From a phage: 64,000 bases of DNA. Shown here one piece after another: positions 2,932 to 61,139 of the stretch. The notes beneath the pieces were generated by a model, which had not been told where the DNA came from, did no database searches, and saw only the letters and a list, made by a program, of their open reading frames with translations. How positions within the stretch are numbered: the stretch's first letter is position 1; each line of letters opens with the position of its first letter. The position numbers and the translations under genes were made by a program. The stretch lies in the sequence record PZ452588.1. The stretch is one strand, 5' to 3'.

Positions 2932-2967
2932 TTTCTAATCTCCGTAATTCTGTATCAGTAGTTGATA

Positions 2968-3005
2968 GTTGTATAGTACCACAGTATGCTTTGGTTGTAA
3001 ACCGT
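2968..3005 (-). promoter_or_regulatory. Early sigma70-type promoter upstream of motA
   Basis: Minus strand GTTTAC (-35, fwd 2997-3002) and TACTAT (-10, fwd 2973-2978), A-tract upstream, GGAG SD before motA ATG. Confidence 0.6.
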
Positions 3006-3028
3006 TTTGTGAAAAAATTTTAAAATAA

Positions 3029-3056
3029 AAAGGGAGAGCCGAGGCTCTCCCTAAAA
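3029..3056 (-). terminator. Stem-loop (GGGAGAGCC-GAG-GCTCTCCC) followed by T-run on minus strand
   Basis: Perfect 8-bp stem at 3032-3052; minus-strand readout gives hairpin then TTTTTATTTT. Confidence 0.6.
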
Positions 3057-19769: not shown

Positions 19770-20372
19770 TTATAGATTAAATCCTTCAAAATCAAGAGTA
19801 TAGATAGTGTATGTTGAATACTTTTTATACTCGTATCTATCTGCAATTCTAAATACACTTCCAGCTGGTATCATTACTTCTTGTTCATCTGAAACTAATT
19901 CCATATTACGATAACGATGGCTATCCGGAAACTTAAAGTTTGGATTGTATTCTTTACAGCGTAGAGCTTTTATAGCATACTCCTGGAAATTGAATACCAT
20001 AGGAGCTTTGAATTCAAAAATAACTTGTGTGTTATACTCTAAACCGGAAGCAAAATGTAGAGCTATATTTTTATCATATGAAGCTGATACGACTTTATCA
20101 AATGTAATAATATCAATTCCTTGATTTAACACCTGCTTAGTCTCAGCTGGAACACCTCTCCAAAGAGGTTTATCGTTTGGAACCAAACGAGATTTGATTA
20201 TTTCATTTAACCAAGTATGGTCATCTGGTTTGTTGGTAATACAATGAATTAAAAGTTCAATTTCAGATAAATTAAACCCTTCAGAAAGTAATTCTTCACG
20301 AATAGAAGCACGCACCGATGCATCCATTGATTTTATTTTAAAATCTTTTAGTTGCATTACTGAGTATTTCAT
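19770..20372 (-). CDS. modA: ADP-ribosyltransferase ModA (200 aa)
   Basis: R-S-E ART motifs (LWRG, SAS, EQEVMIP); 200 aa; T4 modA position. Confidence 0.75.
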   Translation of the reverse strand: MKYSVMQLKDFKIKSMDASVRASIREELLSEGFNLSEIELLIHCITNKPDDHTWLNEIIKSRLVPNDKPLWRGVPAETKQVLNQGIDIITFDKVVSASYDKNIALHFASGLEYNTQVIFEFKAPMVFNFQEYAIKALRCKEYNPNFKFPDSHRYRNMELVSDEQEVMIPAGSVFRIADRYEYKKYSTYTIYTLDFEGFNL

Positions 20373-20992
20373 TCAACTACCTCAATATCATAAACTTTAA
20401 ATGTTCCGAATGAATCGTGTAATTTTTCTTTTGAAATAGAAGTTATTTTATACTTTCCAATTGGAATCATCCATTCTTGTTCACGCACAATCATCATCAA
20501 GTTATCAGTACGTTCTGAATCTAATCCATCAGTATCTTCATACGTGTACTTGAACTCAGTATTAGGAGAAGAAAGTATAATATCGCTGATATGGTCAGAA
20601 TAATTAAAAGCTTTATCAGTTTTTAAACGAAGTATTGTTTCAGTGAAATATTCAGCATAAGAAAAAGAACACGCTGTGTGCAAACTAGTAGTAAATGAAT
20701 CTACCCTGTTCGTTGAAAACACTTCTCCAACTTGTAAATCTTTAATGAGTTCTTTTGTCGATTTTGATATACCACGATATAACTGATAAGGCGATTTAGT
20801 TAAATGCTTTTTAATGATTTTATTCAACTGCCTATGAATAGCTTCATTCTTTTTGGCTTCCATACATTGCCAAAGAACAGACTGCTCAAAGTCAGTAAAT
20901 TTTTCACAGACCTTTTTATACATATCATATTGAAAATCAACGCTTTCAGCTTTTATAGATAACTGTTCAACATCTGCAAGATTAATAATCAT
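20369..20992 (-). CDS. modB: ADP-ribosyltransferase ModB (207 aa)
   Basis: R-S-E ART motifs (LYRG, SFTTS, EQEWMIP); 207 aa; adjacent to modA. Confidence 0.75.
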   Translation of the reverse strand: MIINLADVEQLSIKAESVDFQYDMYKKVCEKFTDFEQSVLWQCMEAKKNEAIHRQLNKIIKKHLTKSPYQLYRGISKSTKELIKDLQVGEVFSTNRVDSFTTSLHTACSFSYAEYFTETILRLKTDKAFNYSDHISDIILSSPNTEFKYTYEDTDGLDSERTDNLMMIVREQEWMIPIGKYKITSISKEKLHDSFGTFKVYDIEVVE

Positions 20993-57962: not shown

Positions 57963-58931
57963 TTATTTCAGAAGAGTAACCTCAGCGATTTCTTCCCAAC
58001 CGTTTTTGTCGGTCATAATAAAGTCAGCAAGATAAAGCGCAGTACGCAGTGAAACATTGCGTAAACGATTAACATTGACTTTCATCCATGATAATGCTTT
58101 ATAAGTTTCTTCATCAGAAAGACCACGCTTTTGCATCATGTCGGTTGAAAGAATAACATCTTCAACCCTGACCATAATTTCTTCATTAGTGTGAACACCC
58201 AAATCCAAATAAACTGAGCGGGACACTAATGCTTGTAAATGTGGAGCAAGTTTAGTACCACGGTCTAATTCGCGGTCAATGTCAACGTTTGTGATAAAAA
58301 CGATCGTTCCTTTAAATTCAAACTCACGCTCAATGCCTTTTTCTTCTAAGTAAGAAGACGCAGTGCTCCAGCAGACTTTACGGGTCTCTCCGGTGTCCAG
58401 AGCAGCTTTCAGAAGATTAAGAATGTCCATATCAGAGAAAACATCCACATCATCAATCAAAAGGACAGAATTCTCTTCACGATTATTCCAGAGCTGTTCA
58501 TAAAGACCGATACCGGAGATTTTACCGTTAATGCTTTTATATTCAATGTATCCATTATCATTTGCTTTATTTAAAGCTTTATCTAAAGAATACGTTTTAC
58601 CAATACCCGCCGCACCAGAGATAATTAATGAACGAATGTTTCCGTTAATAATACCATTCGTCATCATTCCCATAACATTAAATCTTTTATTAATGCGGGT
58701 TTTCATATCTTCATATGATTCTTTAACTTCTTCAACTTTTACACCATCATATGAAATGTCTGATTTGTAAACCCAAACACCGCGACGTTTACCGTCAATT
58801 TCAACAAAAACTTTACCATCTCCTTGTGCATCTACCGGAGCATTATCTGGGAACCATTCACCTAAGAGCTCAAAAGTTCCAGAGATTTCTTTACCAAAGT
58901 AGATACCCTTATTGATAGTTACAGTTTTCAT
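57963..58931 (-). CDS. P-loop NTPase (AAA-like ATPase, about 322 aa)
   Basis: Walker A GAAGIGKT and Walker B VLLIDDVD; start at ATG after GGAG SD. Confidence 0.6.
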   Translation of the reverse strand: MKTVTINKGIYFGKEISGTFELLGEWFPDNAPVDAQGDGKVFVEIDGKRRGVWVYKSDISYDGVKVEEVKESYEDMKTRINKRFNVMGMMTNGIINGNIRSLIISGAAGIGKTYSLDKALNKANDNGYIEYKSINGKISGIGLYEQLWNNREENSVLLIDDVDVFSDMDILNLLKAALDTGETRKVCWSTASSYLEEKGIEREFEFKGTIVFITNVDIDRELDRGTKLAPHLQALVSRSVYLDLGVHTNEEIMVRVEDVILSTDMMQKRGLSDEETYKALSWMKVNVNRLRNVSLRTALYLADFIMTDKNGWEEIAEVTLLK

Positions 58932-58959: not shown

Positions 58960-58998
58960 AGTTGTATAGTACCATAAAGCTTTATGCTTGTAAACAGT
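58960..58998 (-). promoter_or_regulatory. Early sigma70-type promoter
   Basis: Minus strand GTTTAC (fwd 58990-58995) and TACTAT (fwd 58966-58971); leader matches modules at 6606 and 32405. Confidence 0.6.
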
Positions 58999-59025
58999 TT
59001 TGTGAAAAAATTTTTGAAATAAAAA

Positions 59026-59045
59026 GGGGGACCTCTAGGGCCCCC
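59026..59045 (-). terminator. Hairpin + U-run downstream of the ART-like gene
   Basis: GGGGGACC-TCTA-GGGCCCCC stem-loop; minus-strand readout followed by TTTTTATTTC. Confidence 0.55.
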
Positions 59046-59054
59046 TTTATGCTT

Positions 59055-59540
59055 TTATTCCATTTCTATTATATGCATGTTCTTTTTGCTATCAAAATAT
59101 ATGTTTTTAACTGTTAACTCCGAATTAATTGGCAATAAAAACTCTCTTTCATAATCTACCATACAAAGGTTATCATAAAGCTTGTTAAGCTTATCATCGT
59201 CAGTTTGGCCAGATTCTTCAATTGCGATTAAATTTTCTAAAATGTCAATCATAGCAGTCGAATAGTCAAAAACGTTTGCATTTTTTAACACTACTAAAAC
59301 ATTAGTCATATAGCGTTCTGCAGCAAACGTTTCAGCTATATGAGACTCACTGCTAAAGGAAGTTATTCTTTTAAATTTGATTCTCCTATTAACTTCAAAC
59401 TTATAAGATAGTACTTCCTCTATTGTAAGTCCTCTAAAAAGCACGTCTTTAATCTCAAGTTTGTCTTTAATGTAATCATTAACACGCTTATGATTAAAAT
59501 CATTAATTTTGTTGCCAAGGCATTTCATTAAAATATGCAT
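59055..59540 (-). CDS. Predicted ADP-ribosyltransferase-like protein (Mod-family paralog, about 161 aa)
   Basis: R-S-E-type motifs LFRG, SFSSESHIAETFA and EREFLLP aligning with ModA/ModB in this window; start set at first ATG (track ORF starts at TTG). Confidence 0.5.
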   Translation of the reverse strand: MHILMKCLGNKINDFNHKRVNDYIKDKLEIKDVLFRGLTIEEVLSYKFEVNRRIKFKRITSFSSESHIAETFAAERYMTNVLVVLKNANVFDYSTAMIDILENLIAIEESGQTDDDKLNKLYDNLCMVDYEREFLLPINSELTVKNIYFDSKKNMHIIEME

Positions 59541-59584
59541 TGTGTTTCTCTTCAATTTTTTAAAGAACAATTAATTAACTACAA

Positions 59585-59620
59585 ATATATTATAATATGC
59601 TTTATGATAGAAGTAAACAA
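59585..59620 (-). promoter_or_regulatory. Early sigma70-type promoter for the ART-like gene
   Basis: Minus strand GTTTAC (fwd 59613-59618), 18-nt spacer, TATAAT (fwd 59589-59594). Confidence 0.5.
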
Positions 59621-59647
59621 CTTTGTGAAAAATTTTTGAAATAAAAA

Positions 59648-59665
59648 GGGAGCCCGAAGGCTCCC
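59648..59665 (-). terminator. C(UUCG)G tetraloop hairpin + U-run closing the upstream operon
   Basis: GGGAGCC-CGAA-GGCTCCC stem-loop; minus-strand readout followed by TTTTTATTTC. Confidence 0.6.
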
Positions 59666-59667
59666 TA

Positions 59668-60681
59668 TCATTTATAATAACTTCGGTGGTTTTCAAGATA
59701 CACCTTCTCAAGGAAGTCATCCCAGAAACCCATGTCTACTTTTTGCTGCATACCGTTCTTAGAAGCTTCAGTAGATGCTGCTTCTACTTGATCGACCACA
59801 TCTTCCAAAAACTCTTGAACTGTTTTAAATGGATGCTTACCCAACTTCACGTCGAGAATAAATGGAGCATCTTGGAGTGGATAAACCAAGTCACCAGTTT
59901 TGTAAATTTCCAATAGTTGGAGTCCACCACGACAAGCATGACTCAGAGCTTTCCAGTCAATACCTTCATTGGCTTCGGCCTTACGAGCACGTTCACCGTA
60001 TTCAGCATCAAGTTTATTCAAAGACTGCTTAAGCTCAATAAGAGAAAGCGTTGTCTGATATTTACGACCCAACACAGTGTAGAACGTTTGTGGACCTGTT
60101 TTCTCATGATTATGGAACACCCATTCACAGAATTCGTTTTCTGGAAGACGATGCTTAATATCTTCAACTTTAGTGCGACGCTGCTTAATAGAACCATCTT
60201 CTTGGTAATCAACCCATTGCTCAGGGATTTGATTAACTACTTTCAATACATCACGTAATGCAGCCAAACGAGAACCCTTGACACCGTATTTAGAAGCTTG
60301 CTTGCGGACATATCCTAAATATGATTTCATGTTAGTCGTATAAAAACGAGAACGGTTGTCTTGAATAAACTTCCACACATCAGGCAAATCTGATTTAACT
60401 ACTAGTTCAGGTGGAGTGTGAAGCATATCCAATGCTACGGTTTCACCATCTGCTGCTAATTTAAAGAAATACTTAAGACTGTATAGTTCATGGTCAATAT
60501 CATCTTTAGTGTTTTTAGATGATGTGTTGTTAGTGTTTTTACTCATGTGCTCTTTAACGTTTCCGATAAGAATATCACGAGCAGGAGGAACAAAGATTTC
60601 TTTAAAATCTACATCAGATTCTGGGGTAGAAGTTCCATAAAGATGACTACCAAAATAGCTTTTCATTACTGTTTTCATCAT
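59668..60681 (-). CDS. Predicted nucleotidyltransferase-fold protein (337 aa)
   Basis: N-terminal GS-x10-DxD signature (FGSHLYGTSTPESDVDF) and downstream VALDML acidic strand, typical of Pol-beta-like NTases; start overlaps upstream stop. Confidence 0.55.
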   Translation of the reverse strand: MMKTVMKSYFGSHLYGTSTPESDVDFKEIFVPPARDILIGNVKEHMSKNTNNTSSKNTKDDIDHELYSLKYFFKLAADGETVALDMLHTPPELVVKSDLPDVWKFIQDNRSRFYTTNMKSYLGYVRKQASKYGVKGSRLAALRDVLKVVNQIPEQWVDYQEDGSIKQRRTKVEDIKHRLPENEFCEWVFHNHEKTGPQTFYTVLGRKYQTTLSLIELKQSLNKLDAEYGERARKAEANEGIDWKALSHACRGGLQLLEIYKTGDLVYPLQDAPFILDVKLGKHPFKTVQEFLEDVVDQVEAASTEASKNGMQQKVDMGFWDDFLEKVYLENHRSYYK

Positions 60682-61139
60682 TCAGCCTTATATTCAATAA
60701 CAGGACATACTTTAGCTTTACGAGCTTTTAAAAATTCAACGATAACCGATTTCTTGGGTTGAATAGGAGGTAAACCTTTATACGCCCTATCAATATTTTC
60801 TACGTGTAAAGCATAATCCTTTTTCCATTTATAATCTTTATATTTTTCACGCAAATGTGCAGGAATAACAAATGAACCGATAATAAGTAAAACAACCAAA
60901 AGCGCAAGTATAAATGCTGATGGAAGCAAAGTCCATAAACTACCAAAAATAAGCCAACGCTGTAGGCTTTCTGCACAAATAATTGTTAGCCCTACGAGTA
61001 TAACACACCCAAAAATAGAAACGAAAAATGTAGGAATGGCAATAGACCAAAAATATGCGCATAGTGTCTTAGGTCGTTGCCATTCATCGTTAAACAATTT
61101 GAATAATTTATAGTGCCAAGAGTTTTCATTAATAATCAT
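60678..61139 (-). CDS. Membrane protein (153 aa, two predicted TM segments)
   Basis: Hydrophobic segments FVSIFGCVILVGLTIICA and ILALLVVLLIIGSFVI. Confidence 0.55.
   Translation of the reverse strand: MIINENSWHYKLFKLFNDEWQRPKTLCAYFWSIAIPTFFVSIFGCVILVGLTIICAESLQRWLIFGSLWTLLPSAFILALLVVLLIIGSFVIPAHLREKYKDYKWKKDYALHVENIDRAYKGLPPIQPKKSVIVEFLKARKAKVCPVIEYKAE

Follow-up and report, generated by a model that had tools for sequence, protein, structure and literature searches.

We identified a predicted Mod-family ADP-ribosyltransferase gene, additional to modA and modB, in a 64,000-nucleotide stretch of phage DNA from sequence record PZ452588.1 (the whole stretch analyzed is referred to below as the window). 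The window belongs to a Tequatrovirus other than T4, and the gene is the sole minus-strand open reading frame (ORF) between the conserved T4-type genes nrdC.10 and nrdC.11. We read its product as a small arginine-directed mono-ADP-ribosyltransferase of the Mod family, carried on an accessory cassette bounded by promoter-early/stem-loop (PeSL) elements (i.e., a stem-loop terminator placed immediately before a sigma70-like early promoter), and we give this reading a probability of roughly 0.7. The T4 enzymes Alt, ModA, and ModB provide the classic example of ADP-ribosylation in the takeover of a host, and the target of ModA is RNA polymerase alpha. Judging from its sequence and predicted fold, the product of the ORF is a true third paralog beside ModA and ModB, with the arginine-serine-glutamate (R-S-E) site of these enzymes in its R-S-ExE form.

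Sequence and predicted fold of the Mod-like protein

The candidate protein matched both paralogs encoded in the window in BLASTP searches, with an E value of 4e-10 for ModA (28% identity over 152 residues) and 5e-14 for ModB (29% identity over 142 residues). A phmmer comparison among all ORFs of the window gave E values of 2e-13 for the candidate and ModB, 3e-7 for the candidate and ModA, and 1e-12 for ModA and ModB; the candidate is therefore no more distant from ModB than ModA is, and the same search of all window ORFs revealed no fourth Mod-like ORF. The PHROG 832 profile ("RNA polymerase ADP-ribosylase") matched the candidate with an E value of 1.2e-23 over the same profile segment that matches ModA and ModB. 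The Pfam family PF26816 (Mod_ADP_RT) is precomputed on a 95% identical ortholog (P0001), a 62% homolog (P0002), and a 54% homolog (P0003). Our local Pfam scan returned no match for the candidate and none for ModA or ModB; the local copy thus lacks PF26816, and the null result for the candidate is uninformative. An NCBIfam search with the candidate gave no match.

The signature motifs appear in the candidate as LFRG (R36), SFSSE (S61), and EREF (E131 and E133) and align with the corresponding motifs of ModA and ModB (codons at 59435-59433 for R36, 59360-59358 for S61, 59150-59148 for E131, and 59144-59142 for E133). Residues R36, G37, S61, E131, and E133 are among the invariant columns of an alignment of the candidate's clade with ModA and ModB. 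Across 19 to 33 family members, there is no variation at R36, G37, or S61 and little or none at E131 and E133; in the 33-member alignment, the patterns [aromatic]-R-G, S-x-S/T, and E-x-E are kept in every full-length member. Among R-S-E transferases, an E-x-E rather than a Q-x-E turn goes with arginine acceptors, and by analogy the candidate would also be expected to modify arginine. Its R36 and G37 align with R73 and G74 of ModB, in which the R73A substitution inactivates both ADP-ribosylation and RNAylation (PMC10468400).

An AlphaFold2 model computed from a 19-sequence alignment reached a mean pLDDT (predicted local distance difference test) of 91 and a pTM (predicted template modeling score) of 0.84. 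In this model, R36 ends the strand formed by residues 29-37, S61 lies in strand 60-63, and E133 starts strand 133-136. A Foldseek search against the Protein Data Bank (PDB) returned matches with the ADP-ribosyltransferase (ART) fold, consistent with membership in the Mod family. Against predicted viral structures (BFVD), the ortholog from phage ACG-C40 matched with a template modeling (TM) score of 0.98 and ModA/ModB homologs matched with scores of 0.78-0.87, the models of ModB homologs superposing on the candidate at about 0.85. The modeled protein accordingly has an ART fold. A sequence search of PDB chains did not find a Mod-family structure and gave only a spurious match to METTL21A (E=0.38). 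Of the Mod-family features that can be tested, the candidate shows every one except the N-terminal extension, which is not defining.

A preliminary description of this DNA had proposed a third Mod-like ADP-ribosyltransferase at this ORF, with the three R-S-E elements in the right order. The BLASTP matches and the aligned columns confirm that order, the profile match and the predicted fold support the family assignment, and none of the 18 residues that vary among the orthologs is a motif residue. The novelty that it suggested for the paralog needs correcting, as the gene is already recognized. Orthologs in T2, ACG-C40, HY01, UFV-AREG1, Moon, and other phages already carry the labels "RNA polymerase ADP-ribosylase," "modB_2," or "modA_2" (e.g., T2 gp097, YP_010073745.1; ACG-C40_0094; UFV-AREG1 AREG1_00093, "modB_2"; Moon gp100), and the RefSeq annotation of T2 and the Pfam family Mod_ADP_RT precede our assignment. 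The label "RNA polymerase ADP-ribosylase" is a family name transferred from ModA and Alt and does not in itself indicate that RNA polymerase is the target. The description had also stated that T4 has only Alt, ModA, and ModB. This stands for T4 itself, from which the candidate gene is absent, and recent papers likewise give the T4 set as three enzymes (PMC10468400 and PMC9503650); it does not extend to the window, which is not T4.

The ORF runs on the minus strand from an ATG at 59540 to a stop codon ending at 59055. An upstream TTG at 59570, which would add 10 residues (171 amino acids), was rejected because all annotated orthologs use the ATG position and the N terminus of the aligned 54% homolog P0003 also begins there.

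PeSL elements and exchange of the cassette

Read along the minus strand, the locus consists of a stem-loop, an AT-rich tract, a promoter, the ORF, a second stem-loop, a second AT-rich tract, and the nrdC.10 promoter (Table 1). It thus contains two units in which a stem-loop is followed by a sigma70-like early promoter (59666-59589 and 59045-58966). The upstream hairpin has an 8-bp stem with 6 GC pairs (-18.4 kcal/mol; z = -4.5; RNA folding and terminator scan), and an identical hairpin is present at the nrdC.10/nrdC.11 junction of T4. The downstream hairpin, which is present in T2 and absent from T4, has an unexceptional fold (-15.3 kcal/mol; z = -1.7; 11 of 200 shuffled sequences were as stable). 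Both promoters fit the T4/PST-type PeSL consensus TTTACW-N17-TAYWAT, as given in PMC4122927, and the cassette promoter matches the T4 early -35 element GTTTAC (PMC1524935). The -35 box and the AT-rich tract form a direct repeat common to the two PeSLs; an ungapped pattern misses the PeSL copy at about 58999 owing to a 1-nt indel, and this copy is visible in the repeat analysis and by direct reading. The flanks therefore have, at the level of sequence, the PeSL features that can be tested, namely, a stem-loop with a promoter, the consensus, and repeated copies bounding indels.

Table 1. Positions of the cassette, its signals, neighboring genes, and compared loci (window coordinates unless a contig is named)
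Feature	Position	Strand	Remarks
Predicted third Mod-type ADP-ribosyltransferase, coding sequence (CDS)	59055..59540	minus	161 amino acids, ~19 kDa; ORF listing
Upstream stem-loop AGGGAGCC-TTCG-GGCTCCCT with T-run	59647..59666	minus	nrdC.11 terminator; stem-loop half of upstream PeSL
Cassette early promoter GTTTACT-N17-TATAAT (-35, -10)	59589..59618	minus	promoter scan 10/12; read directly
Downstream stem-loop GGGGGCC-CTAGA-GGTCCCC with T-run	59027..59045	minus	terminator of cassette gene; stem-loop half of downstream PeSL
nrdC.10 early promoter TTTACA-N17-TACTAT	58966..58994	minus	promoter half of downstream PeSL; conserved in T4 and T2
Direct repeat, copy 1 (GTAAAC..TTTGTGAAAAAATTTTTGAAATAAAAAGG)	58990..59027	plus	-35 box and AT-rich tract common to both PeSLs
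Direct repeat, copy 2 (same element)	59613..59650	plus	copies 622-623 nt apart
Exchanged block (promoter, CDS, terminator)	59020..59614	minus	90-100% identical to Citrobacter phage Moon
nrdC.10	57963-58931	minus	weak P-loop/STAND/AAA matches, E ~1e-4, below Pfam cutoffs
nrdC.11	59668-60681	minus	RlaP-type nucleotidyltransferase family of RNA-repair pathway, E=2.5e-11
modA (comparison paralog)	19770..20372	minus	200 amino acids; PHROG 832 E=1.4e-33
modB (comparison paralog)	20369..20992	minus	207 amino acids; PHROG 832 E=4e-42
P0002 locus	L004 4001-4546 (Logan contig ERR12726568_1671), also L005		followed by stem-loop AAAAGGGCC-TTCG-GGCCCTTTT and a TATAAT box

Where the window has the cassette, T4 has just one PeSL and lacks the gene, with an alignment gap of 622 columns that equals one repeat period, and T2 has the insertion found in the window. 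The sequences that best match the window overall share about 97% identity with it over 12 kb and do not contain the ORF; they cover 95% of the 12-kb query in two pieces and, like T4, are short of exactly one repeat unit. The nearest ortholog of the ORF is instead found in Salmonella phage Manna (98.1% nucleotide and 99.4% amino acid identity). The preliminary description had the gene standing alone as a cassette, between an early promoter of its own with an upstream hairpin and a downstream terminator, in the layout of a shuffled regulatory unit. The ranges it gave were slightly loose, but its substance was correct: the unit is bounded by PeSLs, absent from T4 and most close relatives, and exchanged between genera.

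The whole cassette occurs in 42 of the 512 records that match the region. Among 50,697 phage records, a tblastn search detected the protein in 44 at 95% identity or more, including the classical T2 and members of the separate genus Moonvirus; the next matches, at about 33% identity or less, were ModA/ModB proteins of other genera. A search of 1.84 billion cluster representatives yielded only 16 clusters with E<=1e-3, in which the candidate's cluster stands alone apart from a cluster of a 65-residue fragment, the next clusters being 28-34% identical. The UFV-AREG1 copy (AREG1_00093, "ModB ADP-ribosylase") has been listed as a cloud gene, found in <=15% of Tequatrovirus genomes (PMC10236363). 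The Moonvirus carriers are Moon, CF1, STML-198, and KM16, in which the gene again lies between nrdC.11 and nrdC.10 homologs. In Moonvirus (Moon, L012 1913-2376), two small hypothetical ORFs that the window and T2 lack separate the Mod-like gene from the nrdC.11 homolog, and the contig carrying the 54% homolog P0003 has the same layout (L006 2952-3421).

Comparison with Moon in 50-nt windows delimited the exchanged block. Across nrdC.11 and nrdC.10, identity to Moon is 45-86% for the window and for T2, and the flanking genes are about 70% identical to those of Moonvirus, versus the much higher identity of the cassette. The rise in identity has sharp edges, and these lie inside the PeSLs; flank and ORF identities were also compared for KM16. 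Within the ORF, the synonymous divergence (dS) between T2 and Moon is 0.023. Given a highly similar cassette between diverged flanks and this low dS, the cassette has, on the evidence of these alignments, recently moved between phage genera. The 62% homolog P0002 occupies a different site, between regA and the DNA polymerase gene 43 on a T4-like metagenomic contig; its called start is probably 24 codons too far upstream.

Other features of the window were recorded during the analysis. A third PeSL on the minus strand at approximately 2950-3050 consists of GGGAGAGCC-TCG-GCTCTCCC, a T-run, the shared AT-rich tract, and GTTTAC-N17-TACTAT. It is nearly identical to the PeSL upstream of nrdC.10 (58960-59047), with a pattern recurrence at 3006-3029, so that potential partners for recombination are dispersed over the window. 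The 3' end of the ORF contains, shortly before the terminator, a sigma70-like site close to consensus (TTGATA-N16-TATAAT, 11/12; 59068-59095, minus strand), which probably arose by chance in the AT-rich sequence. Downstream of nrdC.11 on the map, a 153-amino-acid minus-strand ORF (60678-61139) with a membrane-spanning-looking sequence occupies the place of the homing endonuclease gene mobD of T4, which is a further presence/absence difference in the same hyperplastic region.

Proposed function, selection, and alternative readings

Under the preferred reading, the candidate would act early in infection. Unmodified host RNA polymerase would transcribe the gene immediately after infection from the T4-type early promoter of the cassette, and transcription would end at the cassette's own terminator. 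The compact enzyme would then bind NAD+ in its R-S-ExE site, where R36 and S61 would position NAD+, E133 would serve as the catalytic glutamate, and E131 of the ExE turn would direct transfer to arginine. One or more host proteins may thereby be mono-ADP-ribosylated on arginine, aiding takeover. The target of neither ModA nor ModB can be assumed for the candidate, given an identity of just 28-29% to each. Homologous recombination between PeSLs would insert, delete, and transfer the unit of about 620 bp among T4-like phages. Such a mechanism is described in PMC2839356 and PMC4122927, the former of which reports excised PeSL-PeSL mini-circles, shown by PCR, for RB49 and phi1. In the portions of these PeSL papers available to us, we found no mention of the candidate locus or of an ADP-ribosyltransferase cargo (the terms "nrdC" and "ADP-ribos" are absent from that of PMC4122927).

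The seven orthologs compared for selection form two allele groups (i.e., the window, Manna, and ECO07P2 in one group and T2, ACG-C40, KM16, and Moon in the other). Because synonymous sites are saturated when P0003 is compared, only the close orthologs enter the estimates. Between the groups, dS is 0.08-0.16 and the ratio of nonsynonymous to synonymous divergence (dN/dS) is 0.10-0.20, which indicates purifying selection on the gene overall in these alignments.

Several observations weigh against the preferred reading. The gene is dispensable, as it is missing from T4 and about 90% of Tequatrovirus genomes. The candidate lacks the N-terminal extension of about 36-37 residues found in ModA and ModB, a difference that might affect how the substrate is bound or how stable the protein is. 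In phage BW-1 (OR125554.1, L009 401-885), a 1-nt deletion after codon 86 has led to annotation as two fragments; this copy is either a pseudogene or the product of a homopolymer sequencing error. Within the T2/ACG-C40/KM16/Moon group, 15 nonsynonymous sites and 1 synonymous site are polymorphic, compared with 2 nonsynonymous and 6 synonymous differences fixed between the groups (Fisher p=0.0013, from seven sequences and a crude classification of sites). Several of the changes in this group affect residues 111-127, which immediately precede the ExE turn, and the excess of amino acid polymorphism could be due to diversifying or recently relaxed selection. Finally, the literature searched contained no experimental study (biochemistry or expression) of the gene or its orthologs.

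The alternative that best survives these data keeps the fold and the chemistry and gives the enzyme a noncanonical substrate or role, such as RNAylation with NAD-capped RNA, a nucleic acid or small-molecule target, or counterdefense against a strain-specific immunity protein. The candidate is closer to ModB, an RNAylating enzyme (PMC10468400), than to ModA, and antidefense ADP-ribosyltransferases of phages exist, for example, AcrIF11 (PMC12421852). A sporadic, cloud-gene-like distribution in a hyperplastic region and recent movement between genera also fit this role, and the polymorphism pattern of the T2/Moon group is that expected for arms-race genes. On the other side, no sequence feature indicates a particular target, the polymorphism test has the small sample and crude site classes given above, and the ExE turn is, as in ModA and ModB, the signature of arginine-protein modification rather than the QxE alternative. 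We regard a noncanonical role as unlikely. An equally tentative extension would combine these elements: the third Mod enzyme might have a target or chemistry unlike that of Alt, ModA, and ModB, its PeSL cassette might have spread between Tequatrovirus and Moonvirus through a host-dependent advantage, and the burst of amino acid changes in the T2/Moon group might record an arms race. The enzyme might, on this view, disable a host defense protein specific to certain strains or use NAD-capped RNA to modify a new substrate, and a distinct target or a counterdefense role would, if true, raise the interest of the gene.

A second alternative holds that the ORF is a decaying or noncatalytic remnant, i.e., an N-terminally shortened Mod copy hitchhiking on a mobile PeSL cassette and contributing nothing or only binding. 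It would account for the loss of about 37 N-terminal residues, the frameshifted BW-1 copy, the absence of the gene from most relatives including T4, and the dN/dS of the T2-like allele group, which is near neutral or higher. However, the low dN/dS between allele groups, an intact reading frame in 43 of the 44 records, the retention of all catalytic residues even in the 54% and 62% homologs, and a confident, compact fold in the predicted structure all weigh against this alternative. The short N terminus is also found among relatives. In a rough neighbor-joining tree, the candidate groups with P0002 (62%) and P0003 (54%), and this group is sister to short Mod-like proteins of 175-189 amino acids. 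Nothing precedes the aligned M1 in the candidate, P0003 is likewise short, and the sister clusters P0021-P0025 have 7-10 residues at this position. A short N terminus common to the whole sister group is thus a subfamily trait and not a truncation, and derivation of the ORF as a truncated ModB copy was rejected on this basis. Taken together, a remnant is quite improbable. A chance ORF with fortuitous R/S/E motifs can be dismissed: the motifs are short and the AT-rich intergenic region has many spurious ORFs, but it is refuted by significant homology over the full length, the matches to family profiles, the confidently predicted ART fold, the conservation of the gene in 44 genomes, and purifying selection.

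An arginine-directed Mod-family enzyme on a PeSL-bounded cassette thus remains the preferred reading, and it bears on several questions. ModB has recently revealed protein RNAylation (PMC10468400), and a predicted fourth enzyme, its catalytic site intact, is encoded by T2 and some 40 further sequenced phages of the T-even and Moonvirus groups. An added host target could be relevant to how T2 and T4 differ in the takeover of the host or in host range. In addition, the locus illustrates clearly, in nature, the shuffling of genes by PeSLs, with a cargo whose function can be interpreted, sharp transfer boundaries, and, in one relative, a homolog at a second insertion site.

Comparison with known systems

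The annotated orthologs differ from the candidate in nothing of substance and represent the same gene, with 95-99% amino acid identity, a length of 161 amino acids, and a position between nrdC.10 and nrdC.11 or the homologs of these genes. The cassette resembles the PeSL cassettes of T4-type phages (Arbiol et al. 2010; Comeau et al. 2014): a stem-loop terminator immediately precedes a sigma70-like early promoter, a variable ORF in a hyperplastic region lies between copies of the element, and the element marks the ends of indels that distinguish close relatives.

The bacterial R-S-E toxins of the C3-like, VIP2/iota-like, and Tre1-like types are far more distant, with only 7-19% identity to the phage protein, which is smaller and has no secretion, translocation, or immunity partner; C3 toxin has QxE where the candidate has ExE. 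T4 ModA shares with the candidate its motifs and fold family at the identity given above, and it differs in being more distant than ModB and in having the N-terminal extension. The closer of the two T4 paralogs is ModB, an NAD--protein ADP-ribosyltransferase that also RNAylates S1 and L2. It shares with the candidate PHROG 832, Pfam Mod_ADP_RT, the aligned motif columns R-G, S-x-S-T, and E-x-E, and an early-type promoter. Unlike the 207-residue ModB, the candidate has 161 residues and no N-terminal extension, its gene sits 39 kb away from the modA-modB pair, and it forms its own clade in the rough neighbor-joining tree; ModB is widespread, whereas the candidate is accessory (44 records). The known picture of the Mod family is unchanged by these comparisons and is extended by one accessory member.

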